Assembly: GCA_023269855.1 (NCBI GenBank)
Contig: JAGDWP010000050.1
Span: forward strand, 8,503 to 72,502
Direction: 5' to 3'
From: Nitrososphaerales archaeon
GTDB taxonomy: Archaea > Thermoproteota > Nitrososphaeria_A > Caldarchaeales > Wolframiiraptoraceae
DNA length: 64,000 nucleotides
A program made the position numbers and the translations under genes. The notes under the pieces were generated by a model. That model was not told where the DNA came from and did no database searches. It was given only the letters and a program-made list of their open reading frames with translations. Shown in pieces: positions 47,470-63,731 of this stretch (position 1 is its first letter; each line of letters opens with the position of its first letter).

Positions 47470-48510
47470 TCATTCTAAGATAGATACGTTTTTAAGTGGT
47501 TTCACAGTTGAGGGTTTGTAGAATGGTTCTCTAAGCATGACCGCTCTGATGAATAGTTTCTCAAGTTCTTCATCTGATGCTCCAGCTCTCATAGGTGTTA
47601 AGAAGTCTACTAAGTTGTCGTTCCGCATTAAGCATGGCTTGAATTTTCCATCATGAGTTATTCTTATCCTATCATCGTTCATGCAGAACTCATAGTTATT
47701 GTTAGGTCTAACAACTTCAACCCATACATCATTAGGTAAGAGATACTGTTTCCTCATGTGAAGACTTCTAGTAACAGTTTTTACAGCTGTTTTCTCAAAC
47801 CTCTCTTCGAGCTCTCTTAAGCTATAATAGTATTTATTGAAGAATTCTGTATTTGCTGCACCTTCTTCTACTAATTCTATCAACTGTAAGATGACTTTGC
47901 TCCCGAACTGTGAGGCAAAATCTATTAGACTATCTATTTCATTATGGTTTACATTTTTCATGATGACAACATTTAGTTTTACAGGTGCTAGACCAGCTTC
48001 AACCGCTGACCTTATCGCGTCAACTGTGTATTCAAATCTAGTGCTTCCCTCACTTCTAGTCGCTGTACCTGTTATCCAGCAATATTTTTCCCTGCTCACT
48101 GTATGGAGACTTATGTTAACTCTTGTCATTCCTGCTCTTCTAAGCTTCTTGGCCATGGATACTAGCCGAGTACCATTAGTAGTCATGCTTAAATCGTCTA
48201 GACCCAGTTTTCCAAGGCGTTCAACTATTTCTAGAATGTCTCTACGGAGCATTGGTTCACCTCCACTCAGTTTAACTTTTCTTATATTGTACTTGAAGAG
48301 GAGTCTAACAATTCTCTCAATTTCTTCAGGGGTCATAAGTGTATCAGATTCAGAAGTGACTACTCCCTCCATGTGGCAGAAGATGCATCTGAAATTACAG
48401 CTATAACTTGGATTAACAGAAACTCTAAGACCCTTTAATGGTCTATTGTATCTATCAATTATCAGCAAGATCCAATTATTCCTCCAATGCTTTAGTAAAA
48501 GATTCCGCAA
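47470..48510 (-). CDS. moaA: GTP 3',8-cyclase MoaA (radical SAM)
   Basis: 'CNFRCIFCH' radical-SAM cluster and C-terminal second-cluster cysteines. Confidence 0.7.
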   Translation of the reverse strand: MRNLLLKHWRNNWILLIIDRYNRPLKGLRVSVNPSYSCNFRCIFCHMEGVVTSESDTLMTPEEIERIVRLLFKYNIRKVKLSGGEPMLRRDILEIVERLGKLGLDDLSMTTNGTRLVSMAKKLRRAGMTRVNISLHTVSREKYCWITGTATRSEGSTRFEYTVDAIRSAVEAGLAPVKLNVVIMKNVNHNEIDSLIDFASQFGSKVILQLIELVEEGAANTEFFNKYYYSLRELEERFEKTAVKTVTRSLHMRKQYLLPNDVWVEVVRPNNNYEFCMNDDRIRITHDGKFKPCLMRNDNLVDFLTPMRAGASDEELEKLFIRAVMLREPFYKPSTVKPLKNVSILE

Positions 48511-49601: not shown

Positions 49602-50747
49602 TCATATATTGCTTAATGCGTTATCGATGTCTTCGATTAAGTCTTCAATGTCTTCTAATCCTACTGATAAACGTAATAAGTCTTCTGTTATACCTAATTT
49701 CTCTCTAACATCTCTAGGCATAGTTAATGCTGCACTGATAATTGGATATGTGAGTATCGATTCAGCACCTCCTAGACTTGGAGCAGGCTTGATTATCTTC
49801 AAGCTGTTCATCAACTTTCTTACTTCTTCTTCACCGCCTCTTATTCTGAAGCTTACTACTCCGCCGAAGCCTTTTTTGAATAGTTTTCGAGCTAGGTTAT
49901 GATATTTATTGTTAGGTAGACCAGGATATAGAACTTCTTTGATCTTTGGGTGGTCTTCAAGATATTCAGCAATGATTTGAGCATTCTTACAATGCTTCTC
50001 CATTCTCAGCTCAAAAGTCTTTAACCCTCTCATTATCAAGAATGCTTCAAAGGGTGGAAGGATTGTTCCAAGCATTCTTCTCCAATCCCATATCTGTAGT
50101 ATTTTTTCTCTTCTCGATATTACAGCTCCACCAACTACGTCATTATGTCCTGCTAGATATTTAGTTAAGCTGTGGATTATTATCTCTACTCCATCTCTGG
50201 ATGGTTTATATAGGTAGGGTGTAGCAAAAGTATTGTCTACAGCAAGTATTGTATTGTTCTCTTTACATACTTTCGATATTTCAGGGACGTCGAATACTCT
50301 TAAAGTTGGATTCGTCATAGTCTCAATCAAGACTAGTCTTGTGTTCTTATCTATAGATTCGATTATATTTTCTGTTTCAGGCCATGAGGTCTTGACTTCA
50401 ACTCCGAAATCTCTAAGCTTCTCTCCTAATTGAAGAGTAGTTCCATAAGATTCAGCTGATAAAACTATTTTATCACTTTTCTTAAGTGTTGAAAAGTATA
50501 TCGTGGAGATAGCTGCCATACCGCTGGAGAAACAGAGAGAGTCTTCACCATCCTCTAATTCTGCTAATATATTTTCTAATGCTTTTACTGTTGGGTTCTC
50601 CTCCCTACTGTACTTTAAATCAACCCCTCTATCGGTTTTCCGAGTCCATCCAGGCTGCTCAAAGATAGCTGTCTGATATATGGGCGGGATAAATACTCCT
50701 AAGACTTCATCTCTATATTTATGTCCATGAATAGATCTTGTCTGCAG
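49602..50747 (-). CDS. Cys/Met-metabolism PLP enzyme (cystathionine gamma-synthase/gamma-lyase family); homology-supported extent, ORF-track Met is internal
   Basis: PLP Lys motif 'SLTKYLAGHNDVVGG'; in-frame upstream translation '…SIHGHKYRDEVLGVFIPPIYQTAIFEQP…' matches family N-terminus, but no ATG/GTG/TTG between stop 50754-56 and 50519. Confidence 0.75.
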   Translation of the reverse strand: MQTRSIHGHKYRDEVLGVFIPPIYQTAIFEQPGWTRKTDRGVDLKYSREENPTVKALENILAELEDGEDSLCFSSGMAAISTIYFSTLKKSDKIVLSAESYGTTLQLGEKLRDFGVEVKTSWPETENIIESIDKNTRLVLIETMTNPTLRVFDVPEISKVCKENNTILAVDNTFATPYLYKPSRDGVEIIIHSLTKYLAGHNDVVGGAVISRREKILQIWDWRRMLGTILPPFEAFLIMRGLKTFELRMEKHCKNAQIIAEYLEDHPKIKEVLYPGLPNNKYHNLARKLFKKGFGGVVSFRIRGGEEEVRKLMNSLKIIKPAPSLGGAESILTYPIISAALTMPRDVREKLGITEDLLRLSVGLEDIEDLIEDIDNALSNI

Positions 50748-50889
50748 GGCTGATTAAGTATCTATCTAGCCAGGATATATATTTTTCCCTGTCATCCTCA
50801 GATTCTCCAAAGAGACATAACGATTATGAGCGAAAAGAAACAGAATTTTCAATTGTAATTGTAAGCGAATAACTCTGCTAGTGGTTATT

Positions 50890-52128
50890 TCATGCTTTTG
50901 TAGCTGTAGCTATTTCATTCAACGCTGTTGTTAAGTAGTCTATTTCTTCTTTATTATTGTATAGGTAAAGGCTTGCTCTAACCGTTCCTTCAATGTTCAA
51001 TCGTTGATGGAGTGGGTGAGCACAATGTTTACCCGTTCTTACAGCTACACCATAACCGTCTAGTAAACTACCAACTATATTCGAGTCCAGCTCTTTAATA
51101 TTGAATGCAATTATTCCACCACGATCCGATATGTTGTTTGGACCGTAAATAGTTATGGCGTCTCCTAATTCAGATAATCTCTTTAGAGTGTAGTCGGTTA
51201 GTTCTTCTTCATATTTTCTTACGTTATCCATTCCTATTCTCTCTAAATAGTCTACTGCTGCACCAAGCCCTAATACTCCAGCTATATGGGGTGTTCCTGC
51301 TTCGAAGCGGTGTGGTGGATCCAGGAGAACAAAATCTCTTAAAGTTACTTCTCTGATGGCTCCTCCACCAAGCCTGAATGGAGATAATTCTCCTAGAAAG
51401 TCTCTTTTAACCCACAGTATTCCTACACCTGTAGGCCCAAGCATCTTGTGTCCACTGAATGCGAGGAAGTCGATTTCCAATTCTCTAACATTTACAGGCA
51501 TGTGTGGTACTGATTGTGCTCCATCCACTATTATGACTCCGCCTACTTCATGTATTCTCCTCGCAATATTCCTAACGTCAACTATTGTTCCGAGAACGTT
51601 AGACATATGAGTGACTGAAACTATCTTAGTTTTCTCACTTATTTTTTCATCTAGCTCATTACGATTAATTAATCCATCGTTTGTGATGTCTATATAGTTT
51701 ATTTTAGCTCCCGTCATAGAGGACATCATCATCCATGGGAGAATATTGCTATGATGCTCCATGACTGTTAAGAGAATTTCATCTCCAGGCTTCAGTATTC
51801 TTAGAGCATAACTGTATGCCAGCATATTGAGGGAATCGGTGGTTCCATATGTGAAGATTATCTCTTCAGGACTATATGCATTTATGAATTTTGCAACCTT
51901 TTCTCTAACATCCTCATATCTTGAGGTAGCTTGTTGACTAAGAAGATGGACTCCACGATGAACATTGCTATACTCGTTTAGATAAAATTCTCTTATCGTT
52001 TCTATAACTTGGATAGGTTTAAGAGATGAAGCAGCACTATCAAGATAGATTAAACGTCCGCCTCTTATCTTCTTCTTCAAGATAGGGAAATCCTCACGTA
52101 TCTCTTCAACTTTAAGGGACGGCATCAT
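50890..52128 (-). CDS. sufS: cysteine desulfurase, SufS/CsdA type
   Basis: PLP Lys 'SGHKMLGPTGVGIL', C-terminal catalytic 'RTGKHCAHPL'. Confidence 0.85.
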   Translation of the reverse strand: MMPSLKVEEIREDFPILKKKIRGGRLIYLDSAASSLKPIQVIETIREFYLNEYSNVHRGVHLLSQQATSRYEDVREKVAKFINAYSPEEIIFTYGTTDSLNMLAYSYALRILKPGDEILLTVMEHHSNILPWMMMSSMTGAKINYIDITNDGLINRNELDEKISEKTKIVSVTHMSNVLGTIVDVRNIARRIHEVGGVIIVDGAQSVPHMPVNVRELEIDFLAFSGHKMLGPTGVGILWVKRDFLGELSPFRLGGGAIREVTLRDFVLLDPPHRFEAGTPHIAGVLGLGAAVDYLERIGMDNVRKYEEELTDYTLKRLSELGDAITIYGPNNISDRGGIIAFNIKELDSNIVGSLLDGYGVAVRTGKHCAHPLHQRLNIEGTVRASLYLYNNKEEIDYLTTALNEIATATKA

Positions 52129-52295
52129 CCTTGAGAAGCATAATCGGAAATATAAGAGCTTCTCAACAACTATCCTTCTTGTATCACTTCTGAAGATTCA
52201 AGCACTAAAACAGGTAACTATGATATTATAGATTCCGCTATGAATAACCTGCAAGTTGCTCCAGATTATTTGAAGAAGTATTCAGGGTTGAGGGG

Positions 52296-52535
52296 CTACT
52301 TAGAGTAGATGACGGTTACTTTTGTCCCGTTTTTCTCAACTATTTCAAACTTTAAGTTCCTCTTGTTTGCAAGCATCTCCAAAACTTTCAAGGGTACTTC
52401 TCTTTCATCCGATGTTACTCTCAACACTGCTTTTCCTTCTTCTACTCTTGCTAGTAACTGTGTTAATCTTATCACAGGATTTTCTGTACATCCAGGCTTT
52501 CTCTCTCTAAGATCTACAGAGTATTCATCCATCAT
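52296..52535 (-). CDS. TusA/SirA-like sulfur carrier (variant CxxxP motif)
   Basis: 'VDLRERKPGCTENPVIRL…AVLRVTSDE' follows TusA architecture with GCTENP in place of CPxP; 4-nt overlap with iscU. Confidence 0.5.
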   Translation of the reverse strand: MMDEYSVDLRERKPGCTENPVIRLTQLLARVEEGKAVLRVTSDEREVPLKVLEMLANKRNLKFEIVEKNGTKVTVIYSK

Positions 52536-53029
52536 GGTACCGTTCCGTATTTCCGATATAATCTCTCAATTAACTCTTCTTCCTCTAATGCTTGCCTTTC
52601 TTCTTTACTCAAATCCCTTGGAAGCCATTCAGGATGTTCTTTCCTGACTTCTTCAAAGTATCTTCTAATCGCTCTTTTCAATCCTCCAACAGCTAGGATA
52701 CTGCAATGATATTTTATAGATGGTAGTCCGCCAAGCTCATTTGTTACATCTTCCCAAGTTATATCCCATGCTTCTTTCAGAGTCTTGTTCTTCACCATCT
52801 CAGTAATGATACTTGCAGCGGCAATATTCGCTGCACATCCATAACTCTCAAACGATGCATCAATTATTTTATCTCCATTGATCTTTAGATATATTGTGAT
52901 TACGTCACCGCATGCAGGGCTTCCAGCTTGAGATGAAACGGATGCATCTTCCATTCTACCTAGATTCTTAGGATTCCTGAAGAGCTCAAGGATTTTAGGA
53001 GTATATATTAAGGGGGTTCTCGTGCTCAT
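52532..53029 (-). CDS. iscU: IscU/NifU-like Fe-S scaffold with C-terminal extension
   Basis: 'GSPACGDVI', 'ESYGCAAN', 'KYHCSILA' three-Cys scaffold motifs. Confidence 0.8.
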   Translation of the reverse strand: MSTRTPLIYTPKILELFRNPKNLGRMEDASVSSQAGSPACGDVITIYLKINGDKIIDASFESYGCAANIAAASIITEMVKNKTLKEAWDITWEDVTNELGGLPSIKYHCSILAVGGLKRAIRRYFEEVRKEHPEWLPRDLSKEERQALEEEELIERLYRKYGTVP

Positions 53030-54318
53030 GCTTCCACCGTCTTCTTCAAAGCTATCCTACTTTCTCTAGCTAATGGGCTCATTATTCTAAGCTTCTCAAT
53101 CGCTGGTGGAATTTGTGATAAAACGTATTCTATGTCTTCTTCAGTTTGATACCTTGACACCTTGAACAGGATACTTCCATGGGCTTCTTCATGTTTTCTT
53201 CCAATAGCTAATATTACATGGCTTGGTTCTAAGACCCTGCTCGTGCAGGCGCTCCCACTTGAAACGTAGATTCCTCTCAAGCTTAACTCTACAGTGATTG
53301 ATTCTCCTTCAACATAGAGAAAGCTAACATTCAAATTATCTGGAGCCCTCTTTTCCCCCATAGGACCATTCAATAATACATCCGGGACATTTTCCAGAAT
53401 TCCATGCATTAATCTATCTCTAAGCTTCTTCATTTTCTCAATGTTATAGTCAAAGTTGCTGAAGGCTAATTCTACAGCTTTTTTAAAGCCTGCTAATGCA
53501 GGAGTATTCTCTACACCTGGCCACATTCTCTGCGTGCTTAAAGCTCCATGCATTACAGGTTTAAGCTTGACATCTTCTCGAGCATACAGTATTCCGATAC
53601 CTTTTGGACCATGAATCTTATGGCTACTCAATGTTAACAAGTCTACTCCAAGTTCTTCAACATCTATCTTCATTCTACCGTAAGCATCTACTGCATCAGT
53701 ATGGAAGATTATTTTATCGTTTTTGTCTTTAACTGTTTCTACAAGAGTTTTTATGTCTTGAATTGTCCCAATTTCATGATTTACCATCTGTATGCTTACC
53801 ATCAACGTCTCATGGTCGATTAGCATGCTTAACAAGTCTGGGTCTACGAATCCTTCCTTATCTACTGGTACTGTTACAACTCTGTAGCCATGTTCTTCCA
53901 GAGATCTTGCTGGGAATAGGACGCTTACATGCTCTATAGCCGAAGTTATAATCTTGTTTCTTTCTTTACCTCTAGCTAGTGCTCCCCCTATGATAGCTAG
54001 ATTATTTGCTTCAGTCCCACTATGGGTTAAGATTAATTCACCACCTCTGGCATTAATAGTCTTTGATACTTCTTCCAGCGTTGATTCCACGACTTCATAT
54101 GCTTCCCATCCAGGCAAGTTTGTTATCGATGGGTGCCCATATCCTTTCTGGTTAAAATATGGAAGCATCGCTTCTACAACTTCTGGAGGAACCCATCCTG
54201 AATTCTCATGATCGAGGTATACTTCTCTAACTGGTTTACCATGATATTTTATGAATTCTGATACTTTAGGCATGTTCTTCAATAACGTAGTTATATTAGC
54301 CTCATATAAACATATCAA
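53026..54318 (-). CDS. iscS: cysteine desulfurase, IscS/NifS type
   Basis: 'SSHKIHGPKGIGILY' PLP Lys, 'SSGSACTS' catalytic Cys loop. Confidence 0.85.
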   Translation of the reverse strand: MICLYEANITTLLKNMPKVSEFIKYHGKPVREVYLDHENSGWVPPEVVEAMLPYFNQKGYGHPSITNLPGWEAYEVVESTLEEVSKTINARGGELILTHSGTEANNLAIIGGALARGKERNKIITSAIEHVSVLFPARSLEEHGYRVVTVPVDKEGFVDPDLLSMLIDHETLMVSIQMVNHEIGTIQDIKTLVETVKDKNDKIIFHTDAVDAYGRMKIDVEELGVDLLTLSSHKIHGPKGIGILYAREDVKLKPVMHGALSTQRMWPGVENTPALAGFKKAVELAFSNFDYNIEKMKKLRDRLMHGILENVPDVLLNGPMGEKRAPDNLNVSFLYVEGESITVELSLRGIYVSSGSACTSRVLEPSHVILAIGRKHEEAHGSILFKVSRYQTEEDIEYVLSQIPPAIEKLRIMSPLARESRIALKKTVEA

Positions 54319-54415
54319 CTTAACTTATTTTTGATGATGTATCGGTGCTGTCAAATAGTTTTGAATTATTAAGCATTTATCGGCGAGCTCAGTTTCTAGA
54401 ATAACTTCCTAGTTA

Positions 54416-55132
54416 TTAATCCTCCATTAATTCTATTTCCTGGATAAAGTCTCCATGCCATGAGTGGTACCAGACATCTCCTGAAAATCCATTAACACTC
54501 AGCATTCCATGAACTACACCATCGAGCTTGTAATCCAGCGTATAGTATCCATAGAAAATTGTTGGTTTTTCAACATCTATTTCTCGACCTGGAAAGACCT
54601 GTGAGAGATATTTGTATGCGATTTTAACTGCTTCTTCACTTGAAACAGGCATCTCATAAGGATAAGCAAAAGTCCATTGACCCATCATACCCTGCATTCT
54701 ATTATGCATCCCATATTTTAGATTCCACATCATATTCGGACCAGGCTCAGGGCTTATCACACCAGTATATGGATCGATGATTAATTCGAAAGCACCCCAC
54801 CCAGTCTCATCTTCAGCTGCGATTGCATAGAAGTTGTTGCTAAACTCCATTATTTCAATTATGGATAATCCTCTCCATCTAGAGATATAAGCCTCTAACT
54901 TTTCTCGTACATCATAAATGCTTAATCTTTCCTGAGTGTTTTGAGAGTATCCCCTAGGTTGATACAGTCCATAATGCATAGGGCATCCCTGCCACCAATT
55001 CATCATACCATATGGAGGGTTAGATGTCTGAGCAGCCACTGTATTTATCCATAAGACAATACTTACTGAAATAATTAGTAGTGAGATCAGAACGATTCCT
55101 ATTATGAGAAATCTTCTATTAGGATTGCTCAT
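54416..55132 (-). CDS. membrane-anchored hypothetical protein (N-terminal TM, extracytoplasmic domain)
   Basis: Single N-terminal TM helix; Met/Trp/Tyr-rich domain; adjacent to YHS genes. Confidence 0.4.
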   Translation of the reverse strand: MSNPNRRFLIIGIVLISLLIISVSIVLWINTVAAQTSNPPYGMMNWWQGCPMHYGLYQPRGYSQNTQERLSIYDVREKLEAYISRWRGLSIIEIMEFSNNFYAIAAEDETGWGAFELIIDPYTGVISPEPGPNMMWNLKYGMHNRMQGMMGQWTFAYPYEMPVSSEEAVKIAYKYLSQVFPGREIDVEKPTIFYGYYTLDYKLDGVVHGMLSVNGFSGDVWYHSWHGDFIQEIELMED

Positions 55133-55141
55133 GCTCTCACC

Positions 55142-55345
55142 TTAGCAACAATGTGAGTGAGATGAATGCCTATGCTTCTCTTCAGCAGCTTCTTTTTCAA
55201 CGTATTTTTCAGGGTTTCTTTCAAACTCTCTTCTACAATCCTCTGAGCAGAAGTAGTATGTAGTTCCCTCATATATAATTGAGAGTGAATTCTTCTCGAC
55301 AGCCATTTTACAAACAGGATCTGTAAATTTCTTCTTCCCAAACAC
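55142..55345 (-). CDS. YHS/TRASH-domain metal-binding protein
   Basis: 'DPVCKMAV…YYFCSEDCRREFERNPEKY' YHS motif; His/Cys-rich tail HRHSSHSHCC. Confidence 0.7.
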   Translation of the reverse strand: MFGKKKFTDPVCKMAVEKNSLSIIYEGTTYYFCSEDCRREFERNPEKYVEKEAAEEKHRHSSHSHCC

Positions 55346-55519
55346 TTCTAATCAAGTAGTATATCGTTAGGCATCTATTTTTGGAGAACGTATTTTTCAT
55401 CACTAAATGTAGCGTTTTGTAATCTCATCAATATTCCTGAAAGAAAAAGTATATTACATATTCGTTAAAGATTAGTTTTTATTTAAGGATCTTACTTTTA
55501 AAGCTATATCATTTAGAGG

Positions 55520-56053
55520 TTATGGACCTTCTTTTATCTCGATTACTACTGCGTGGTCGCTTAGGGAAAAGTATGCATTTATTCCTATTCTTTCGAAGAT
55601 CGGTTGGATGAAGTGGGCGATGAATAGGGAGCCTTTACCGCCCAGAGTATGCATGAGAGTTATTACTTTCTTTTCATCTTTGTCTACTTCATTGTATTCA
55701 AAGAGGTTAGCATAGATGGATAGACTCCGCAAGTATTCAAGTACGGTTTCAAGGTTTAGTGTTCCATGTTTAGCTAATATGAATGGTTCTGAGACTTCTT
55801 TCCCCGCATTATAGCTAGCTCGTATAACCGCTTCATCAGGTATAGCTTCTAGTATATATCGTAATGCGAGACTAGACAATCGGATGAAATTAAACTTCTT
55901 AGCATATTTATCAAAGTTTGTATATGATAAAATTATCTGATTTACAAGAGTATTCACACTAATATTCTGTGTTTGAGCTTCTTCCTGTAATGCTTTTAGA
56001 GATAGCTCGCTTATCCTAAAAGACCGTGTAACAGTTCTGTCAGATCTTATCAA
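55520..56053 (-). CDS. putative transcriptional regulator (RHH/HTH-like N-terminus plus ligand-binding domain)
   Basis: N-terminal 'RSFRISELSLKALQEEAQTQNISVNTLVNQIIL' DNA-binding-like segment; flanked by two YHS genes. Confidence 0.35.
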   Translation of the reverse strand: MIRSDRTVTRSFRISELSLKALQEEAQTQNISVNTLVNQIILSYTNFDKYAKKFNFIRLSSLALRYILEAIPDEAVIRASYNAGKEVSEPFILAKHGTLNLETVLEYLRSLSIYANLFEYNEVDKDEKKVITLMHTLGGKGSLFIAHFIQPIFERIGINAYFSLSDHAVVIEIKEGP

Positions 56054-56148
56054 GACTGTGGATAAATCTTTCGCAGGGATATAAAAATATTAATGTAGGA
56101 GAGAAAAGGTTAAGAAACTCGTCTTATCAATAAACTCTGGTGTAGCAA

Positions 56149-56295
56149 ATGGCTATAGATCCTGTTTGTGGAATGAATGTTGATGAGAAGAAGGCAAAGT
56201 ATGTTTCAGAATACAAAGCTAGGAGATACTATTTCTGTTCATCAACATGCAAAAATTTGTTCGATAAAGATCCTCAGAAATACGTAAAATCATAG
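56149..56295 (+). CDS. small YHS-domain protein (48 aa), unlisted in ORF track
   Basis: MAIDPVCGMNVDEKKAKYVSEYKARRYYFCSSTCKNLFDKDPQKYVKS: canonical DPVCGM…YYFCS…C YHS motif. Confidence 0.6.
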   Translation: MAIDPVCGMNVDEKKAKYVSEYKARRYYFCSSTCKNLFDKDPQKYVKS

Positions 56296-56310
56296 TTGAA
56301 TCAATCTAGT

Positions 56311-56562
56311 CTACTTTCGTATGGTTATTTTCCATAATGCTTCTTCTAAACGCTCAAGGGTGAGTACTTGACATCCTTTTCTGATAGCTGCCTCCTTTAT
56401 CGTTTCACATGATGGTTGATTATCAAATAGTACTTCTAATACTTCTCCTTCCTTAATCTTATCTAATGCTTTAACAGTATATAACACTGGGTATGGACAG
56501 GGAAGCCCTATTATCTTTAGGATATATCTACCTGATTCAAGCTGAACCAATTCTACTACCAT
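56311..56562 (-). CDS. tusA: TusA-like sulfurtransferase
   Basis: 'GLPCPYPVL' CPxP motif; overlaps 3' end of sulfite reductase-like gene by 26 nt. Confidence 0.75.
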   Translation of the reverse strand: MVVELVQLESGRYILKIIGLPCPYPVLYTVKALDKIKEGEVLEVLFDNQPSCETIKEAAIRKGCQVLTLERLEEALWKITIRK

Positions 56563-58027
56563 AATTGTATCCTCTCCTCATCAATTCATCAGCAAATTCA
56601 TTAAAGTTTTCATAACTACTTTCAATAAATAATCTGAGTATATCTTCTACTACCAAGGATACATGCTCAGACGGGATATTCTTCACTAATAATTTCGCAA
56701 GCTTTGAATTACTTCCACGTACGTATAAGTTGTAGCATGTAATAGTCTTTTCATTCTCTCTAATTATAGTCGATTGTAGACCAATGTCGGAGACGATGTG
56801 CTGAGCACAACTGTTCGGGCATCCACTAATAGATATAGTTATGTCCAGTTTACTTATCTGATCTTTTAATTCATCTTCTAAGTTCTTTAGTAGAGTGACC
56901 GCTCTCATCTTACTACTCTCACTAGTTTTACCGCAGAAATCGCTTGGACAAGCTCTCACTCTATATTTAATTAACGGTTGACCAGGGTCTAACCCTATCT
57001 CCTTCAGTTCTTCTTTAACTCTATCAAGTTCTTCTCTTGGAATGTGGGGAATTATTATTTTCTGTGAAGGAGACACCCTAATCTCAGAACTATATCTTTC
57101 AGATATGTTGATTATCTCTTTAAACTGGTGAACATTTAATAGCCCTGTAAAAGTAGGAACGGTCAAGGAGTATAACCCTTGAATATTTTCAGGCACTATT
57201 ATATCATGCTCTCTCCAAACAATGGATAGGTAGCTAGCGTCAAATATTGGAAAAGGTTTACCTATACGTTCCTCTATCATATCTTTTATCTTTTCAACAC
57301 CTAATTCTTTTACAAGCCATTTGAACCTTGACATGCTCTTTCTTTCTCTGAACCCATGTTCGTTATAGATTTCTACAACGGTTTTAATAAATTCGAGAGA
57401 TTCTCGTAGTGGAATAAAGATGTTCAGTGGTTGTGCTATGAATGGTGGGTAACCTATGCTTCCACCTATAAACGGTGTGAAACCTAACCCATGATCTGTC
57501 TTTACAGCGATTAATGCTAGATCGTTTACTTCAGGTTTAATGCAATGGATTGGGCATGCTGAAATCCCTATCTTAAATTTTCTCGGTAGGTTAAGGTATT
57601 CTTTCTTTCCAGTAAAAAATCTGACTACATCTCTAACTATTGTATATGTTTCGAATAATTCACCATTCTGGATCCCTGTAAATGGGCATGTTGTTATATT
57701 TCTGATATCACCGTACCCTGCCTTCGGATAATGTTGACCACACATATCTGTGTATAATCCAGCTTCTTCAAGCTTGCTAAAAACTTCGATAGAGTCTTCA
57801 TCCCTAATCCAATGAAGCTGTATATTATGTCTAGTGGTAACTTCAAGATATCCTCTACCATATTTTTCTGATAATTCAGCAATTGTCCTCGCTTGGTCTA
57901 TTGTTAAGATCCCTCCTACAACCTTTATGCGGAGGAAGTGTTTAGAGCCATTTCCAGATTCAGAGCCTAAAGCGTATCTTCCAAGAAATCTATCTAGTTC
58001 ACTTACCTGGATCTGTAGGTTTGCCAC
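56537..58027 (-). CDS. ferredoxin-type sulfite/nitrite reductase hemoprotein (siroheme-[4Fe-4S])
   Basis: 'TTCPFTG…GISACPIHC' and 'ISGCPNSCAQH' siroheme/4Fe-4S cysteine clusters; two NIR_SIR repeats. Confidence 0.75.
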   Translation of the reverse strand: MANLQIQVSELDRFLGRYALGSESGNGSKHFLRIKVVGGILTIDQARTIAELSEKYGRGYLEVTTRHNIQLHWIRDEDSIEVFSKLEEAGLYTDMCGQHYPKAGYGDIRNITTCPFTGIQNGELFETYTIVRDVVRFFTGKKEYLNLPRKFKIGISACPIHCIKPEVNDLALIAVKTDHGLGFTPFIGGSIGYPPFIAQPLNIFIPLRESLEFIKTVVEIYNEHGFRERKSMSRFKWLVKELGVEKIKDMIEERIGKPFPIFDASYLSIVWREHDIIVPENIQGLYSLTVPTFTGLLNVHQFKEIINISERYSSEIRVSPSQKIIIPHIPREELDRVKEELKEIGLDPGQPLIKYRVRACPSDFCGKTSESSKMRAVTLLKNLEDELKDQISKLDITISISGCPNSCAQHIVSDIGLQSTIIRENEKTITCYNLYVRGSNSKLAKLLVKNIPSEHVSLVVEDILRLFIESSYENFNEFADELMRRGYNYGSRIGSA

Positions 58028-58084
58028 CCCGGTTGTTTGTATTCATAACACCGTTATATAAATATATTCGTCCTACGCAATAAA

Positions 58085-59269
58085 TTGGAAAAAGTGAACA
58101 ATAATTATGGTGAATTGGAAACTAATAACTTGATGATCTCAAGACCGCTCATCGAAGACATTATAGAATGCTTAAGGAGGGACTACCTAAAACCTATGAA
58201 AAATAAGGTTATAAAACTTAATGATGTCTCAATCATCGTTAAACTCGAGTATCCTGAAGACTTCTTGACTGATCCTTTGAGAACTATAAAGCGGAAACCT
58301 GCTAGCCTACTCTTTGAGGATGTATTTAGTAAAGGGTTGCTTAAACAAGGAAGAACAATTATCACTGCTTCTTCAGGTAATTTTTTGAGAGAGCTAGCTC
58401 TAATAGCTCTCAACCGTGGATTTAAGATTATAGGTGTTACACCTCCGAGGATTCCATATGAAAGCTTAAAGATCTTAACATCACTTGGAGTCAACATACT
58501 CCATATTAGTGAAGAATATGATCTGTGTCCAAGAGAGACGACAGTTTTCTATACTAGAAGCTTAGCTGAGAGGTATAGATTCAATCTTGTAAACATAGAC
58601 CAGTATAATAGCTGGCAAAATGTTATGGCCCATTTGTACATGACATGGAATGAAATAAAAGACCTCGGAGAAATAGATTATGCCTGCATACCTCTAGGAA
58701 GTACTGGAACATTCATGGGAATTACTACTGGGTCTAATCTCGAAAAATGGGATATGAAAATTATAGGAGTCCAGCCAACAAAATATCATCATATTCCAGG
58801 CGTCCATCACATAGTTGGAGATTGCGAATGGAGTCCGGAAATATTCACTCCTCTAATCAGTAGAGAAATAGTAACAGTCGACGACGTCGATGCGTATGCT
58901 GGCTTAATAATGTTATGGAAGAACGGTATACCTGCAGGTCCATCAACAGGAATGACCTTCATCCAAGCAGTTAAGCTTGCTGAAAAAGTTAAAGAAGGCA
59001 GGATCCTAACCATATCCGCGGACAGCATCTTTGCTTACAGAGATTATGTACTAGAATACGTAAAGGAGATAAAAGAACAGATAATTGATAGATATCCTGA
59101 ACTAGCTGAAGAATACGTAAGATATGTTGAATGGTTAAAGAAGCTTCCAGGCCTCGATCAAAGAATGGAATTGATTAAGAAATTATATAGGGTGGCGGAT
59201 GAAGCCGGTAGAGTTTACAGATTTGATAATGAAGAAGATTTGCTGAAAGAGATAAAGATATCAACTTAA
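58085..59269 (+). CDS. PLP-dependent Trp-synthase-beta-fold enzyme, CysK/CysM-like, divergent, with ~110-aa C-terminal extension
   Basis: 'IITASSGNFLRELALIALNRGFKIIGVTP' (TSGN loop) and glycine-rich 'GSTGTFMG'; putative PLP Lys in 'TIKRK'. Confidence 0.5.
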   Translation: MEKVNNNYGELETNNLMISRPLIEDIIECLRRDYLKPMKNKVIKLNDVSIIVKLEYPEDFLTDPLRTIKRKPASLLFEDVFSKGLLKQGRTIITASSGNFLRELALIALNRGFKIIGVTPPRIPYESLKILTSLGVNILHISEEYDLCPRETTVFYTRSLAERYRFNLVNIDQYNSWQNVMAHLYMTWNEIKDLGEIDYACIPLGSTGTFMGITTGSNLEKWDMKIIGVQPTKYHHIPGVHHIVGDCEWSPEIFTPLISREIVTVDDVDAYAGLIMLWKNGIPAGPSTGMTFIQAVKLAEKVKEGRILTISADSIFAYRDYVLEYVKEIKEQIIDRYPELAEEYVRYVEWLKKLPGLDQRMELIKKLYRVADEAGRVYRFDNEEDLLKEIKIST

Positions 59270-59348
59270 AAATGTGGAGGAGGGAAAAAGTTATAAGCAA
59301 GAAAAATTTGATGAATGACCTAGGAGGTTAGGAGAACTATCAGAGAAA

Positions 59349-60572
59349 ATATATCTAAAATGTAGAGATTGTGGGAAATCTTATCCTCCTCTTCTCCAAT
59401 ACATATGCCCAAGCTGTTTTGGTGCATTAGATGTTGAATACACAGGTTTAGAAGACCTTAGGATAAATCCCCAAGAGTTATCAACTAGGAGAAAAGATAT
59501 CTGGAGATACATAGAGCTGCTACCTATACTAGATTCTAATAACATCATATCGCTGGGAGCAGGATATACTGGGTTGATTCCTTCCACTAGATTGTCTAAG
59601 AAGCTAGGCTTAAGAAAACTATACTTAAAAGAAGATTTTACAAATCCAACTCATTCATTTAAAGATAGAGCTGCAAGCGTAGCTGTCTCTAAAGCTTTGG
59701 AATTCAGATTAAATGCTGTTGGATGCGCTTCAACAGGAAATCTTGCAGCTGCTGTCTCAGCCCGTGCTTCTAGAGCAGGTTTACCCTGCTACATCTTCGT
59801 TCCTAAAGGTGTAGAAAAAGAGAAACTATCACATGCGTTATCCTATGGTGCTAGACTCATTATAGTAGATGGAACATATGATGAAGCAAACTGGATGGCG
59901 GCACGATTCGCAGAAGAATACAACGTAGGCATAGTAAACGTGAACATTAGACCATACTATGTTGAAGGATCTAAAACGCTTGCATACGAAATATGTGAAC
60001 AACTTGGTTGGAGAACACCTGACCACATAATTATCCCAATGGCTAGCGGTGCCTTATTAAACGCTATAGATAAAGGGCTGAGAGAATTAAAGACCATAGG
60101 CTTAATCGAGGGTGAAGTAAGAGTTTCTGGAGTCCAACCTGAAGGTTGCTGTCCAATAGTATCAGCATATAAAGAGAATACTGAGTATATTAAGCCAGTC
60201 CGTGAAATAAATACAATAGCAGTGAGTCTCGCGATAGGCAACCCAGGAGACGGTGTATACGCTTTAAGGACTATAAGGAGAACTAAAGGTGTCGCAGTAG
60301 CAGTCAGTGATAGAGAGATTCTTGAAGCTGTAAAAGAGCTAGCACAATTGGAAGGATTATTCGTAGAGCCTGGAGCTGCAGTGACAGTTGCAGGTCTTAA
60401 GAAGATGATTGAAGAAGGATCTGTAGATAGAGATGAAGAGGTTGTCTGTCTTCTCACGGGTTCTGGTGTAAAGACGCCATCTATCATCCAAGAATATACT
60501 ATCAACCCTATCACAGTTAAACCTTCCACTATTGAATTATCTAAAATATTGGAGGTGAGAAAGACTGGCTAG
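59349..60572 (+). CDS. threonine-synthase-like PLP enzyme (ThrC/MetM-like) with N-terminal zinc ribbon; homology-supported extent, track start TTG 59574 is internal
   Basis: PLP Lys 'HSFKDRAAS'; upstream in-frame 'YLKCRDCGKSY…YICPSCFG' zinc ribbon open from stop 59316-18 with no ATG/GTG/TTG; ATA at 59349. Confidence 0.7.
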   Translation: MYLKCRDCGKSYPPLLQYICPSCFGALDVEYTGLEDLRINPQELSTRRKDIWRYIELLPILDSNNIISLGAGYTGLIPSTRLSKKLGLRKLYLKEDFTNPTHSFKDRAASVAVSKALEFRLNAVGCASTGNLAAAVSARASRAGLPCYIFVPKGVEKEKLSHALSYGARLIIVDGTYDEANWMAARFAEEYNVGIVNVNIRPYYVEGSKTLAYEICEQLGWRTPDHIIIPMASGALLNAIDKGLRELKTIGLIEGEVRVSGVQPEGCCPIVSAYKENTEYIKPVREINTIAVSLAIGNPGDGVYALRTIRRTKGVAVAVSDREILEAVKELAQLEGLFVEPGAAVTVAGLKKMIEEGSVDRDEEVVCLLTGSGVKTPSIIQEYTINPITVKPSTIELSKILEVRKTG

Positions 60573-60573
60573 G

Positions 60574-60861
60574 ATTAAGCTCATTCTTCCATCGGTTCTA
60601 GCTGAGGGTGGTGATAGAAATAGAGTGCTTGAAGCTTCTACGCTTAGAGACGTTATCGAGTATTTATGTAAGATAAAACCTGAATTGAGAGATCGGATAA
60701 TCTCTCCGAACGGCGAACTAAATAGATTCTTTAATTTCTATGTGAATGGTGTTAATGCGTATTTTATAAACGGAGCTGATACCTTGTTGAAGGATGGAGA
60801 CGAGGTTTCAGTCATACCTGCTCTAGGGGGAGGACAAAGTGGAAACAAGAAACATTACTGA
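60574..60861 (+). CDS. CysO-type ubiquitin-like sulfur carrier protein (ThiS/MoaD fold), Gly-Gly-Gly followed by 8-residue tail
   Basis: 'LNRFFNFYVNGVNAYF…DGDEVSVIPALGGG' closely parallels M. tuberculosis CysO C-terminal half; beta-grasp N-terminus 'IKLILPSVLAEGG' lies upstream of track GTG start (ATT at 60574). Confidence 0.65.
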   Translation: MKLILPSVLAEGGDRNRVLEASTLRDVIEYLCKIKPELRDRIISPNGELNRFFNFYVNGVNAYFINGADTLLKDGDEVSVIPALGGGQSGNKKHY

Positions 60862-61900
60862 TGAAGAATTCGAGCTATATTCTAGGCAGATAGTCCTCAA
60901 TGTCATCGGTTTTGAGGGACAGGAAAAATTAAAGAATTCAAGAGTTGCAATCGTAGGGCTGGGAGGCTTAGGGTCTCCTATTGCTATGACTTTAACAGCT
61001 ATGGGTGTAGGATATATTAGGATCATCGATAGAGATGTAGTCGAGAAATCTAACCTGCATAGACAACACTTATACACATTTAAAGATATAGGAACACCGA
61101 AAGTTGAAGCAGCCTCAAAGAGATTGAAGGAGATGAACCCATACGTTGAGATCGACCCCTACCCTGTATACATTGATGATTCAACTGCTCTGGAAGTTGT
61201 TAGAGATGTAGACTTAGTACTAGATGGACTGGACAATTTTAAGGCTAGAAGAGCTATCAATAAAGCATGCTATAAGCTATCAATACCGTACATATATGCT
61301 TCAGCTATAGAGACATACGGTATGGTTACAACTTTAATCTCTAGAGAGGGGCCCTGCCTTGAATGTATTTTTCCAAATATTTCAGACCAGAACCTGCCCA
61401 CATGCTCTACAGTAGGTGTACATCCATCAATACTCCAAATAATTTCAAGTATTGAAGTCTACGAAGGCGTCAACATATTAATGGGGAGGAAGTCAAGACT
61501 TTCTGGAAAACTTTTAGTATATGATTTAGAAGATTTATCAACTACATTCTTAGACATAAAAAAATCTCCCAATTGCTCTGTATGTGGAGGGAGAGAAGTA
61601 GTCAAGGAGACAGTCACATATCCACAAATCGAGGAAACATGCTCTAGAGAAGGCAGAATCACGTTTATCATTAATCCAGGAAGGATAGACCCAATTGAGA
61701 TCCAGAAATTAGCTAAGATTATTTCTGAGCATGGATACGTGATATCTAATATTAGTGAGCTAGGGTTAACATTTAGATTAGATGGTAACATTATCTTTAG
61801 CATATTGAAGACAGGGGTTGGGATAATAGAAGGTGCACACTCTAGAGAATATGCTCTCAAAGTTTATGAAGACATATTGAAAAAAGTTATAAACTTTTAG
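60839..61900 (+). CDS. E1-like activating enzyme (MoeB/ThiF/MoeZ family) with unassigned C-terminal domain
   Basis: 'LYSRQIVL', 'VAIVGLGGLGSP' nucleotide loop, two CxxC pairs (CLECIFP…PTCS; CSVCGG); GTG start overlaps CysO-like tail. Confidence 0.8.
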   Translation: METRNITDEEFELYSRQIVLNVIGFEGQEKLKNSRVAIVGLGGLGSPIAMTLTAMGVGYIRIIDRDVVEKSNLHRQHLYTFKDIGTPKVEAASKRLKEMNPYVEIDPYPVYIDDSTALEVVRDVDLVLDGLDNFKARRAINKACYKLSIPYIYASAIETYGMVTTLISREGPCLECIFPNISDQNLPTCSTVGVHPSILQIISSIEVYEGVNILMGRKSRLSGKLLVYDLEDLSTTFLDIKKSPNCSVCGGREVVKETVTYPQIEETCSREGRITFIINPGRIDPIEIQKLAKIISEHGYVISNISELGLTFRLDGNIIFSILKTGVGIIEGAHSREYALKVYEDILKKVINF

Positions 61901-61916
61901 AACTTTAACATACGTA

Positions 61917-63731
61917 ATGAGTGAAAAACTTTATTGTTACACAGGTAAAGTTCTCAGAGTTAATTTAACAAACAGAAGCTTTAAGATTGAACCGACTAGA
62001 AGAGACTTTGTTGAGAAGTATATTGGTGGAAGAGGTTTAGGCATCAGATACTTACTTGAGGAGATAGCTCCTAAGATTGATCCATTAAGTCCTGAGAATA
62101 AGCTGATTATTTCAACGGGTCCGCTTACTGGGACAGTTGCTCCCCTCTCAGGTAGGTACCCGATCGTGACTAAGTCTCCTTTAACAGGCACTGTCTGTGA
62201 TAGTTATAGTGGATCATATTTTGGTGTAAGGATGAAGTATGCTGGATACGATTTAATGATAGTTGAGGGTAGATCAAGCAAGCCTGTATACGTTGAGGTT
62301 TCCGAGAAGGGTGCAGAATTCCATCCTGCTGAGCATCTGTGGGGGTTAGGCACGCTAGAAACATCAAAAAAGATTAAGGAGGAGTTGAGAGATGAGAATG
62401 CAAGCGTGTTAGCTATAGGACCTGCTGGAGAGAACCTCGTAAGATTTGCATGCGTAGTTGATAGTGGTTTATGGGTTCATGGGAGAGGAGGGACTGGAGC
62501 AGTATTCGGCTCTAAGAATCTAAAAGCTTTAACGATAAGAAACATTAAGGGTGAAGTCAATCTATATGATCCTGATGGTTTTAGAAAGACTGTAGTAGAC
62601 TTGACTAGGAATAGAGTGAAGACTTCTGAGAATCTATGGGCTCAGACTGATGGCACACCATTAATAGTTGACTTATCTCATAATGCAGGAGTCCTCCCAA
62701 CCTACGGCTTCACCTCAGGAGCATATGAATACCATGACAGAATAAATACTGATAGAGTAAAAGAAGCTACAGCCAAGAAGTATGCATGCCCCTACTGTCC
62801 ACTAGCTTGTAAGAGGATACTTAGATTTGATTCTAGATTAATCAAGTCTCCAGAATATGAAACCTTAGGAATGATTGGCTCAAACACAGGTCTTAGAAGT
62901 CTTAGAGATGTTGCAGAAGCAGCTGAACTCGCTACAGACCTAGGCATGGATACCATATCGCTTGGGGCCACGATAGGGTTTACAGTTAAACTATACGAGA
63001 AGAAATTAATCACAGAAAAAGATTTTAATGGATTGAAACCTTCCTGGAGCAGTAATGAGTTCATAATCGAGATATGCAAGATGATAGCGTATAGGAGGGG
63101 GCTTGGAGACCTACTAGCTGAAGGCACTAGGAGAGCTGCTGAAAGACTTGGTGGAGAAGCTCTGAGAGAACGTATAGACGTGAAGGGCTCTGAGATACCT
63201 GCATACGATCCTAGAGGAACTTATGGTATGGCCTTAGCGTACGCGACAGCAGATAGAGGTGCATGCCATCTAAGAGCGTGGGCAGTAGCATTTGATGCAT
63301 TTGGAGAAATGGATCCATATAGCTTTGTTGGGAAAGCCCAGCTTGTCAAAGACTTACAAGACTTGAATAGTATTAAATGGTCTCTAATAATATGTGATTT
63401 CTGGCTCTCAAGCTATGAAGACTTGGCAAAACTACTAAAAGATGCGTTAGGGAGAGAATACAAAGTAGAAGAGTTAAGATTAATCGGGGAAGGAATCTGG
63501 AATATTTCTAGAATCTTCAATATTAGAGAAGGCTTCAAGAGAGAAGATGATACTCTTCCTCCAAAGATGTTTTACGAACCTCTAAGAGGCGGAAAGACTG
63601 ATGGAAAAACAGTCGACCTAAACCAGTTCAAAGAATCACTTACAGAATACTATAAGCTGAGAGGATGGGATGAAGAAACTGGGAAACCTAAAGAAGAAAC
63701 ATTGAAGAAGCTGGAAATAGAAATACACTAA
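61917..63731 (+). CDS. aldehyde:ferredoxin oxidoreductase family enzyme (second paralog)
   Basis: AOR-family N-terminal and 'CPYCPLACKR' cluster cysteines; 604 aa. Confidence 0.85.
   Translation: MSEKLYCYTGKVLRVNLTNRSFKIEPTRRDFVEKYIGGRGLGIRYLLEEIAPKIDPLSPENKLIISTGPLTGTVAPLSGRYPIVTKSPLTGTVCDSYSGSYFGVRMKYAGYDLMIVEGRSSKPVYVEVSEKGAEFHPAEHLWGLGTLETSKKIKEELRDENASVLAIGPAGENLVRFACVVDSGLWVHGRGGTGAVFGSKNLKALTIRNIKGEVNLYDPDGFRKTVVDLTRNRVKTSENLWAQTDGTPLIVDLSHNAGVLPTYGFTSGAYEYHDRINTDRVKEATAKKYACPYCPLACKRILRFDSRLIKSPEYETLGMIGSNTGLRSLRDVAEAAELATDLGMDTISLGATIGFTVKLYEKKLITEKDFNGLKPSWSSNEFIIEICKMIAYRRGLGDLLAEGTRRAAERLGGEALRERIDVKGSEIPAYDPRGTYGMALAYATADRGACHLRAWAVAFDAFGEMDPYSFVGKAQLVKDLQDLNSIKWSLIICDFWLSSYEDLAKLLKDALGREYKVEELRLIGEGIWNISRIFNIREGFKREDDTLPPKMFYEPLRGGKTDGKTVDLNQFKESLTEYYKLRGWDEETGKPKEETLKKLEIEIH

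Follow-up and report, generated by a model that had tools for sequence, protein, structure and literature searches.

The 64 000-nt stretch of archaeal DNA analyzed here (below, the window; contig JAGDWP010000050.1 of assembly GCA_023269855.1) carries at positions 49602-61900 a cluster of sulfur genes, in which a homologue of threonine synthase (ThrC) is followed by genes of a ubiquitin-fold sulfur carrier and of an E1-like activating enzyme. Judging by its sequence, the ThrC-like enzyme is very probably of the MetM type, i.e. a homocysteine synthase that depends on the thiocarboxylate of the carrier; by analogy with Streptomyces, the most likely reaction of this homocysteine module is conversion of O-phosphohomoserine and carrier thiocarboxylate to homocysteine. 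We consider it probable, with less assurance, that a Caldarchaeales (Wolframiiraptoraceae-like) archaeon has in this region, taken as a whole, an assimilatory sulfur island, assembled from separable modules that have been repeatedly joined in TACK archaea and working by the steps proposed below. The closest relatives of the window are metagenome-assembled genomes (MAGs) of Caldarchaeales, including Candidatus Geocrenenecus (Wolframiiraptoraceae).

The original prediction, made from the nucleotide sequence of the window, was that one protein thiocarboxylate feeds synthesis of both cysteine and homocysteine. The homocysteine half of it gained support from the MetM-type placement and from adjacency of the carrier gene; the cysteine half did not, as the second enzyme dependent on pyridoxal phosphate (PLP), a protein with CysK/CysM fold called here PALP-394, is not an orthologue of CysM and is also found apart from the carrier. 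The cluster itself is real: profile searches of its open reading frames (ORFs) gave strong family matches for every gene named earlier, each one where it had been placed, so that the region from 49.6 to 61.9 kb is a compact set of genuine genes.

A probable MetM-type homologue of threonine synthase

The gene at 59319-60572 (plus strand) codes for a ThrC-family PLP enzyme of fold type II that begins with a zinc ribbon (PALP, 3.4e-73); the lysine motif SFKDR is conserved in the alignment. The best solved relatives are true ThrCs, aligned from residue 61 onward (2zsj, 4e-70). A tblastn search of plasmid records revealed a homologue in Nonomuraea with 45% identity over residues 1-403, zinc ribbon included. 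The Nonomuraea gene is preceded by an S-adenosylmethionine (SAM) riboswitch (RF00162; score 68.7 bits, cut-off 44.4), and directly 3' of it lies a gene for a 91-residue CysO/MetO-like protein with C-terminal GG. The metM gene of Streptomyces albulus has a SAM riboswitch upstream, and a metO-like carrier gene adjoins the metM homologue of Microcystis (PMC12172450). GapMind 2026 (10.1101/2024.10.14.618325) lists MetM, MetO, Mec and MoeZ, and states that MetM is often misannotated as threonine synthase. The record with the Nonomuraea gene (L039, NZ_LT559118.1) is called ‘plasmid I’ of Nonomuraea gerenzanensis in PLSDB; with 11.85 Mb and hardly any annotation it is evidently the chromosome, and it contains three places homologous to ThrC.

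We aligned 19 sequences and built a simple neighbor-joining distance tree. The set consisted of 12 archaeal carrier-linked proteins, the Nonomuraea protein, two ThrCs from hom-thrC-thrB loci, the ThrC structures of Aquifex and Mycobacterium tuberculosis and two other zinc-ribbon ThrC homologues. The archaeal carrier-linked proteins and the Nonomuraea protein made one clade, apart from the hom-thrC-thrB, Aquifex and M. tuberculosis ThrCs. In this clade STGNL replaces STGNT and N-x-N-x-RPYY-x-EGSKT replaces NSVNPxRxEGQKT; the PLP-phosphate loop is altered and there is an 8-residue insert. All of the 120 best homologues of the window protein had STGN[LMIV]; none had STGNT. In Thermus ThrC structures, the changed positions belong to the loops holding the phosphate of the substrate, which fits a change of reaction specificity. 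The earlier suggestion that the protein groups with MetM-type enzymes and not with canonical threonine synthases thus agrees with the tree, with the derived motifs and with the carrier neighbor. No other ThrC homologue was found in the window.

Two other possible markers were tried and rejected. The zinc ribbon does not tell the two kinds of enzymes apart, as zinc-ribbon ThrC homologues of Priestia and Natrinema have canonical or other motifs and no carrier neighbor. Nor do NCBIfam cut-offs: the riboswitch-controlled Nonomuraea protein and a true hom-thrC-thrB ThrC both pass TIGR00260.

The zinc ribbon is encoded 5' of the first canonical start codon of the gene, and ATA at 59349 is a candidate start. 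In six Caldarchaeales orthologues (the window, 59319-59361, L002, L006, L007, L008 and L013) there is no ATG, GTG or TTG between the upstream stop codon and the ribbon; ATA or ATT is kept 3-4 codons ahead of the first Cys, with AGGAGG further upstream. Orthologues of more distant lineages have ATG at the corresponding position. This pattern of codons suggests a conserved non-canonical start of the gene in Caldarchaeales. Gene callers shorten the protein to 332-365 residues, with loss of the ribbon. More generally, in the ThrC-like gene, the carrier gene and the cystathionine gamma-synthase (CGS) family gene described below, conserved N-terminal coding sequence precedes the first ATG, GTG or TTG; therefore mechanical ORF calls truncate all three.

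Sulfur carrier and E1-like enzyme

The gene of the ThiS-family carrier (60559-60861, plus strand; PF02597, 4.3e-12) opens its frame 14 nt ahead of the stop codon of the ThrC-like gene. It has no canonical start ahead of the conserved N-terminal sequence; the likely start is CTG at 60565, inside the 3'-end of the ThrC-like gene and six bases after the Shine-Dalgarno motif GGAGGTGA. The best matches in PDB were M. tuberculosis CysO (3dwg_C, 4.7e-9) and a chain of the ThiS/MoaD family (4n6e_B, 3.6e-8), both aligned over the full length, with SAMP1 and MoaD scoring far below. BLASTP scores were 57.8 bits with the MetO-like protein of Nonomuraea, 52.4 with CysO and 40.8 with the MoaD-like paralogue from the same window. 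These results bear out the view of the carrier as CysO-type. A ThiS proper, working in thiazole synthesis, would be another possibility; the carrier is closest to CysO, and neither thiG nor thi4 was found in the window.

The C-terminus of the carrier, GGGQSGNKKHY, extends eight residues past Gly-Gly, and the part of the gene coding for this tail overlaps the start of the E1 gene. Eleven of 14 orthologues end in GGG, two have short tails and one is fused to E1. In the window (60835-60861) and in L006 (7420-7443) the stop codon that directly follows GGG is changed to CAA, giving 8-residue tails that run into the E1 start. With such a C-terminus, proteolytic maturation of the window carrier would be needed before activation. 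Apparent fusions of carrier and E1 were seen in L010 (in one frame) and in several database proteins.

The E1 (60839-61900, plus strand; ThiF match, 1.6e-74) consists of a ThiF adenylation domain with a GxGxxG loop and two zinc-binding CxxC pairs, the arCOG01676 core. The loop and both pairs, already pointed out in the original prediction, are invariant, and the predicted role of the protein is adenylation of the carrier at its C-terminal glycine. As had been noticed, there was no match to a rhodanese domain. The C-terminal domain, on the other hand, had been called unassigned; most likely it is the TBP-like domain that the majority of archaeal E1-like enzymes are reported to have (PMC2948915, PMC3597702). 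Its 90-100 residues have a confident structural model with the pattern beta-beta-alpha-beta4-alpha, and Pfam TBP matches were seen, all of them sub-threshold, in three of four homologues. Since Makarova and Koonin (2010, PMC2948915) described arCOG01676 as an E1 core that has a TBP-like domain at its C-terminus, and fusions of ubiquitin-like protein (Ubl), E1 and TBP-like domain in Thaumarchaeota, the domain is not new; nothing experimental was known about it according to Brindefalk et al. (2013, PMC3597702). In this domain (residues 260-353) an invariant Cys268-x-Arg270 was observed throughout 20 archaeal E1 homologues, within ‘EE[VI]C[GS]R’, which neither of the two papers describes. Cys268-x-Arg270 may be regarded as a candidate sulfur-relay site.

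Far from the cluster the window has a second ThiS-family gene (7281-7574, minus strand; PF02597, 2.6e-19). Its MoaD-like product ends in GGSLF, and the gene is situated tail-to-tail and overlapping with a MoaE gene (6843-7292, plus strand; PF02391). The MoaD-like protein bears less resemblance to CysO and MetO than does the carrier of the cluster, and it is the obvious dedicated carrier of molybdopterin or tungstopterin synthesis. There are, then, at least two ubiquitin-fold carriers in this genome, both with residues past Gly-Gly. For that reason a stand-alone metalloprotease of the JAMM/Prok-JAB type (13644-14030, minus strand; PF14464, 7.5e-11; intact HxH...S..D motif) is a plausible candidate for trimming both carriers and for releasing adducts of carrier and amino acid. 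The JAMM gene, with its intact HSHPSGNPRPSLED motif, adjoins genes of triose-phosphate isomerase and prolyl-tRNA synthetase.

We also considered the cluster carrier and E1 as a MoaD/MoeB pair serving the adjacent gene for tungstopterin aldehyde:ferredoxin oxidoreductase (AOR; 61917-63731, plus strand). As a separate MoaD/MoaE pair is present, this candidate lost most of its force, and for the carrier we have largely dropped it; the E1 itself may nonetheless be a shared one. A wider form of the idea is that the ThrC-like enzyme is an ordinary threonine synthase, and that the ThiS-family protein and E1 make up a general archaeal system of the SAMP/MoaD type, for tungsten or molybdenum cofactor or for tRNA thiolation, that merely happens to lie between MoaA (47470-48510, upstream of the cluster, as is Kae1) and AOR. 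The flanking genes agree with it, and so do the standard archaeal architecture of the E1 with its TBP-like domain (PMC2948915), weak matches of the carrier to SAMP1 and MoaD_arch, true ThrCs as best solved homologues (2zsj, 4e-70) and the passing of cut-offs of threonine-synthase hidden Markov models (HMMs). Such cut-offs, however, carry no weight, because the riboswitch-controlled gene passes them too. The dedicated MoaD/MoaE pair elsewhere in the window, and the fact that the cluster carrier is nearer to CysO and MetO than to the MoaD of the window, also speak against this idea. Adjacency of ThrC-like and carrier genes is kept at 40-55% identity across phylum-level lineages, whereas adjacency to AOR or MoaA is not; furthermore, the phosphate-binding and Asn-loop motifs differ systematically from those of canonical ThrC and match those of the SAM-riboswitch-controlled gene. 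We regard an ordinary threonine synthase as very improbable here, and keep to the MetM-type assignment.

Conservation of gene order in archaea

A scan for the PALP-394 family with one genome per species gave 31 loci, all of them in MAGs, nearly all with TACK labels and three with bacterial labels. Neighbors within 10 kb of PALP-394 were counted by tblastn of the window proteins in the 21 loci with total flank of at least 8 kb. Among these well-flanked loci the ThrC-like gene was present in 12, the carrier in 11, E1 in 10, sulfite reductase in 12, TusA in 12 and IscS/IscU in 6-7; either sulfite reductase or the ThrC-like gene stood beside PALP-394 in 16. The pair of sulfite reductase and TusA is a conserved neighbor (12 of 21). 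In 12 related loci TusA adjoins sulfite reductase, while IscS adjoins the PALP-394 orthologue in seven, distant Bathyarchaeia and Nitrososphaerales included. Four distinct PALP-394 loci (L004, L011, L012 and L014) have sulfite reductase/TusA and no carrier in the available flank of 4-10 kb.

Considering the PALP-394-anchored loci that have the ThrC-like gene and some sequence past its 3'-end, we saw that the carrier gene came next in all of them, usually followed by E1. As these loci were chosen through PALP-394, three more were sampled through the ThrC-like protein (from Ca. Hecatella, a Thaumarchaeota MAG and a Bathyarchaeia MAG); a ThiS-family gene was directly 3' in all three and E1 followed in two, with PALP-394 absent from each. 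In L046 a homoserine dehydrogenase gene is located between carrier and E1, within the operon of the ThrC-like gene; it is the one piece of context in line with conversion of O-phosphohomoserine to homocysteine. The tight and universal unit is that of ThrC-like enzyme and carrier, usually with E1; PALP-394, sulfite reductase/TusA and IscS/IscU often go with this unit but can be separated from it. The clustering is not due to chance, as the sulfur gene set recurs around orthologues of 40-77% identity in several TACK lineages; it is conserved across Caldarchaeales, Bathyarchaeia, Brockarchaeota and Nitrososphaerales.

Some of the related loci had further neighbors. In Bathyarchaeia and Brockarchaeota, the neighborhoods of PALP-394, TusA and sulfite reductase (L004, 11152-14685; L014, 2919-3677; L027, 7466-8908) include a conserved protein of ∼182 residues and a PF03601 (YeiH-type) membrane protein, possibly a transporter of sulfur oxyanions. 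In loci of Geothermarchaeota type (L015, 1509-2912; L017, 3331-4749) PALP-394 is divergently paired not with sulfite reductase but with a pyridine-nucleotide-disulfide oxidoreductase, conceivably another source of reduced sulfur. The flanks of the loci lacking both partner modules (L015, L017, L019, L034 and L036) had genes of disulfide oxidoreductase, ZIP transporter, aminotransferase, NadA and the transcription factor TFB, none of them informative.

PALP-394, a separate family of PLP enzymes

PALP-394 (58085-59269, plus strand; PALP, 1.3e-28), whose likely true start is ATG at 58130, belongs to a small family of TACK archaea and is, by its sequence, an intact PLP beta-replacement enzyme of fold type II. 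The family has ∼81 members at 90% clustering, and all members with an organism name come from MAGs of TACK archaea. A sharp drop in score, from 151 to 69 bits, sets the family off from ordinary cysteine synthases, and full-profile matches that include the C-terminal extension of ∼80 residues were found for five or six of 1.84 billion cluster representatives. PALP-394 is not an orthologue of CysM (TIGR01138, 109.9 bits against a cut-off of 394.2; PRK11761, 92 against 413; identity to CysM 27-28%, ∼27% for M. tuberculosis CysM), and it scores below all the CysK, CysM, cystathionine beta-synthase (CBS) and SbnA family cut-offs.

The PLP lysine, the presence of which had been proposed for checking, is K69, invariant in 27 sequences, as are S97-G98-N99, Q173, G205/G208/G212 and S287. 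Thus the PLP lysine, the Asn loop, the Gly-rich phosphate loop G205-T209 and the serine facing the pyridine nitrogen (S287) are invariant or nearly so; among family-specific positions, R70 and C247 are invariant and a C148-P-R-E motif is near-invariant. In a Foldseek search with the AF2 model (pLDDT 87.6), DcsD (O-ureidoserine synthase), CBS, CysM of M. tuberculosis and of E. coli and SbnA had nearly equal scores at 22-28% identity. All of these nearest folds are beta-replacement enzymes; with scores so close, the nucleophile cannot be read from the sequence. Still, PALP-394 is repeatedly found beside a reductase that supplies reduced sulfur and desulfurases that consume cysteine, which makes us lean, by a narrow preference, towards a cysteine synthase.

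It is doubtful that PALP-394 takes its sulfur from the carrier thiocarboxylate. The original prediction in full form, with one thiocarboxylate feeding both pathways, has PALP-394 acting as M. tuberculosis CysM does (O-phosphoserine and carrier thiocarboxylate to cysteine) and the ThrC-like enzyme acting as MetM does. Here and in all Caldarchaeales loci PALP-394 and the ThrC-like, carrier and E1 genes are co-directional, with gaps of 56-130 bp, and in 12 of 21 well-flanked loci, distant lineages included, no more than 10 kb lies between the two modules; M. tuberculosis CysM, one of the closest structures, shows the highest identity (27-28%), and archaeal neighborhoods of E1, Ubl and cysteine synthase were noted before (PMC2948915). 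Yet an enzyme that is not a CysM orthologue, that stands beside sulfite reductase/TusA with no carrier or E1 in 4-10 kb of flank (the four loci named above) and that is missing from all three independently sampled operons of ThrC-like enzyme and carrier does not look tied to the carrier, and the linkage to IscS/IscU and sulfite reductase is explained equally well by a cysteine synthase using sulfide. This makes the full model unlikely, and we prefer a homocysteine module on the carrier with PALP-394 as its separable companion.

A third possibility is that PALP-394 is CBS-like: homocysteine made by the MetM-type enzyme would be condensed with serine, and the neighboring enzyme of the CGS/cystathionine gamma-lyase (CGL) family (49602-50753) would release cysteine by reverse transsulfuration. 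CBS 5ohx was in fact the best PDB sequence match (4.2e-21), and CBS structures were among the top Foldseek matches; the scores of CBS, CysM, DcsD and SbnA were, however, essentially equal, and the CGS-family gene was absent from every related locus fetched. In several genomes PALP-394 accompanies sulfite reductase/TusA without a MetM module, which fits direct sulfhydrylation better than a CBS reaction. Reverse transsulfuration is thus quite improbable in our view, and for PALP-394 we keep the assignment as a cysteine synthase.

A paper of 2026 (PMC13188885) makes the case that zero-valent sulfur is what assimilatory sulfite reductases release and that persulfides are the preferred donors of cysteine synthases; this makes a TusA-mediated route to PALP-394 conceivable and proves nothing here. 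A bolder version would make PALP-394 a new class of cysteine synthase with a protein-bound sulfur donor (TusA persulfide or carrier thiocarboxylate), with the Cys-x-Arg of the E1 as a relay in place of the rhodanese domain of MoeZ/Uba4, so that sulfite would reach both sulfur amino acids without free sulfide; we offer it as a long shot.

Sulfite reductase, TusA and cysteine desulfurases

The siroheme/[4Fe-4S] assimilatory sulfite reductase of NirA/SirA type (56537-58027, minus strand; NIR_SIR, 2.8e-47) is transcribed divergently from the operon of PLP enzymes. It has two NIR_SIR_ferr (PF03460) and two NIR_SIR (PF01077) repeats. Among solved structures, M. tuberculosis NirA (1zj8, 2.8e-52, residues 29-469), an enzyme that works as a sulfite reductase, matches best. 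In NCBIfam the top-scoring models are named for nitrite reductases, all below cut-offs; specificity for sulfite is suggested by the conserved TusA and PLP-enzyme neighbors. The TusA gene (56311-56562, minus strand; PF01206, 7.4e-20), with a CPxP motif (‘GLPCPYPV’), overlaps the 3'-end of the reductase gene by 26 nt, and the two are probably translationally coupled.

Farther along the minus strand come IscS/NifS-type cysteine desulfurase (53026-54318; PF00266, 3.9e-65; TIGR03402, 407 bits), a cysteine consumer and a possible source of persulfide, then the Fe-S scaffold protein IscU (52532-53029; PF01592, 9.8e-39), which accompanies IscS in related loci, a 79-residue protein (52296-52535) and a SufS-family cysteine desulfurase (50890-52128; TIGR01979, 556 bits against a cut-off of 475), the last being conserved only in close Caldarchaeales loci. 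The 79-residue protein, conserved in Caldarchaeales loci, had been called TusA-like. Sub-threshold similarity is indeed there (Pfam TusA, E-value 0.011; BLASTP against the window TusA, E-value 0.044), and the protein may have a divergent TusA-like fold; the CPxP motif, though, is absent, with GCTENP instead.

Proposed pathway

From the gene identities, family placements, gene order and catalytic residues we infer the following substrates, sulfur donors and direction of sulfur flow. Sulfite reductase with its overlapping TusA would turn sulfite into sulfide or sulfane sulfur. The 8-residue tail of the carrier would be removed first, plausibly by the JAMM protease. The E1 would then adenylate the C-terminal glycine of the carrier, and the acyl-adenylate would be converted to thiocarboxylate with sulfur coming from sulfide or from a persulfide on TusA, IscS, SufS or the conserved cysteines of the E1 itself. 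The MetM-type ThrC homologue would form homocysteine from O-phosphohomoserine and the thiocarboxylate of the carrier, as in MetM/MetO of Streptomyces. PALP-394 would make cysteine from activated serine, the likelier donor being free or TusA-delivered reduced sulfur, with thiocarboxylate as a possible alternative. IscS, IscU and SufS would consume cysteine for Fe-S clusters and sulfur relay.

Several points weigh against this scheme. The reference for MetM was the inferred orthologue in Nonomuraea and not the characterized MetM of S. albulus, and the window protein passes threonine-synthase models (TIGR00260, 289 against 167; PRK08197, 313.5 against 303). For a cyanobacterial MetM homologue, activity in vitro both as threonine synthase and as deaminase was reported (PMC12172450). 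The genomic context read for thrC, homoserine kinase, cysK, cysE and metY was the 64-kb window and loci of up to 21 kb. The E1 has the architecture standard for archaea (PMC2948915) and may be a shared, general-purpose enzyme rather than one dedicated to this pathway; Gly-Gly of the window carrier is masked by the eight residues. The JAMM gene, the only one found, is 46 kb away from the cluster, and no JAMM genes were found in related loci. Finally, PALP-394 has no characterized relative, and its substrates are deduced from context.

Other genes of the region

The CGS-family PLP enzyme at the end of the cluster (49602-50753, minus strand; PF01053, 4.7e-97; NF006347, 583 bits against a cut-off of 477) is at this position specific to the window lineage. 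The gene has no canonical start ahead of its conserved N-terminal sequence; CTG at 50747 is the likely start.

Between IscS and TusA there is a module (54416-56295; YHS domain PF04945, 2.7e-16) made of genes for a PepSY-like protein of 238 residues (54416-55132, minus strand), a YHS protein (55142-55345, minus strand), a putative regulator of 177 residues (55520-56053, minus strand) and a second small YHS protein (∼56149-56295, plus strand). It was observed only in Caldarchaeales loci; in L002 (5762-8107) and L006 it is inverted in comparison with the window, L007, L008 and L013, and in L002 a methyltransferase gene is inserted. The module is probably metal-related and not obviously involved in sulfur transfer.

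There are two AOR genes in the single 64-kb window (30369-32222 and 61917-63731), along with MoaA and MoaD/MoaE; a tungsten-dependent lifestyle has been proposed for Wolframiiraptoraceae, and two AORs are in keeping with it. An ORF resembling a LAGLIDADG-type homing endonuclease (22036-22929) and a short fragment of a DDE transposase (∼37.9-38.1 kb) lie in the middle of the window. No riboswitches or other RNAs were found in the 47-64 kb part of the window.

Comparison with known systems

In the sampled genomes of Caldarchaeales, Bathyarchaeia, Brockarchaeota and Nitrososphaerota the ThrC-like gene carries the annotation of threonine synthase. Should its product truly be a thiocarboxylate-dependent homocysteine synthase, synthesis of both threonine and methionine is wrongly assigned in metabolic reconstructions of these archaea, most of which are uncultured. 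The cluster also gives concrete candidates for assimilation of sulfite into the two sulfur amino acids, a small PLP family with no characterized member among them; furthermore, it offers a handle on the long-uncharacterized TBP-like domain of archaeal E1s, which may explain how an E1 without rhodanese is loaded with sulfur.

We found in the literature searched no description of an archaeal member of the MetM/MetO type; the abstract of the original MetM/MetO work is said to mention occurrence of the family in archaea. The homocysteine module is best seen as an added member of an already known family, with the variant features of a rhodanese-less E1 in the operon, coupling to sulfite reductase/TusA and association with the uncharacterized PALP-394 family.

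As far as it is summarized in GapMind 2026 (10.1101/2024.10.14.618325) and PMC12172450, the MetM/MetO pathway of S. albulus (Hasebe et al., 2024) has the same core: a ThrC-homologous PLP enzyme, then a CysO-like carrier gene, with an E1 needed for thiocarboxylation. The archaeal protein shares the zinc ribbon and the derived active-site motifs with the actinobacterial (Nonomuraea) metM-type gene controlled by a SAM riboswitch. In contrast to S. albulus, the archaeal E1 is encoded in the same operon and is of the type with TBP-like domain and no rhodanese, unlike MoeZ; the archaeal cluster has neither a SAM riboswitch (in the 47-64 kb searched) nor a Mec/JAMM gene, and it is coupled to sulfite reductase/TusA and to a second PLP enzyme.

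The CysO/CysM/Mec/MoeZ system of M. tuberculosis resembles the archaeal one in that CysO is the closest solved relative of the carrier, an enzyme of CysK/CysM fold is encoded beside carrier and E1, and NirA of this bacterium is, among solved structures, the one nearest to the archaeal sulfite reductase. PALP-394, unlike M. tuberculosis CysM, forms a separate family (∼27% identity, scores below cut-offs, a conserved C-terminal extension of ∼80 residues); its link to the carrier is not universal, the E1 has no rhodanese domain and the JAMM gene is not adjacent.

In Wolinella succinogenes, as Tran and co-workers reportedly described in 2011, a methionine cluster HcyS/HcyF/HcyD/MetY/Sir brings together sulfite reductase, a ubiquitin-fold carrier, an E1 and a homocysteine-forming PLP enzyme, and the carrier tail past Gly-Gly is said to be removed by a metalloprotease. 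The archaeal cluster would share with it the grouping of reductase, carrier, E1 and PLP enzyme, as well as the residues past Gly-Gly. The PLP enzyme of Wolinella is, however, reportedly MetY, of fold type I and acting on O-acetylhomoserine, whereas the archaeal one is a ThrC homologue of fold type II, presumably acting on O-phosphohomoserine; here, in addition, TusA is coupled to the reductase and the protease is outside the cluster.

The E1 has the domain architecture of the archaeal arCOG01676 E1s, for which Ubl-E1-TBP fusions are known in Thaumarchaeota (PMC2948915, PMC3597702); it differs from those described previously in being embedded in a MetM-type operon and in the invariant Cys-x-Arg (C268/R270) of its TBP-like domain.

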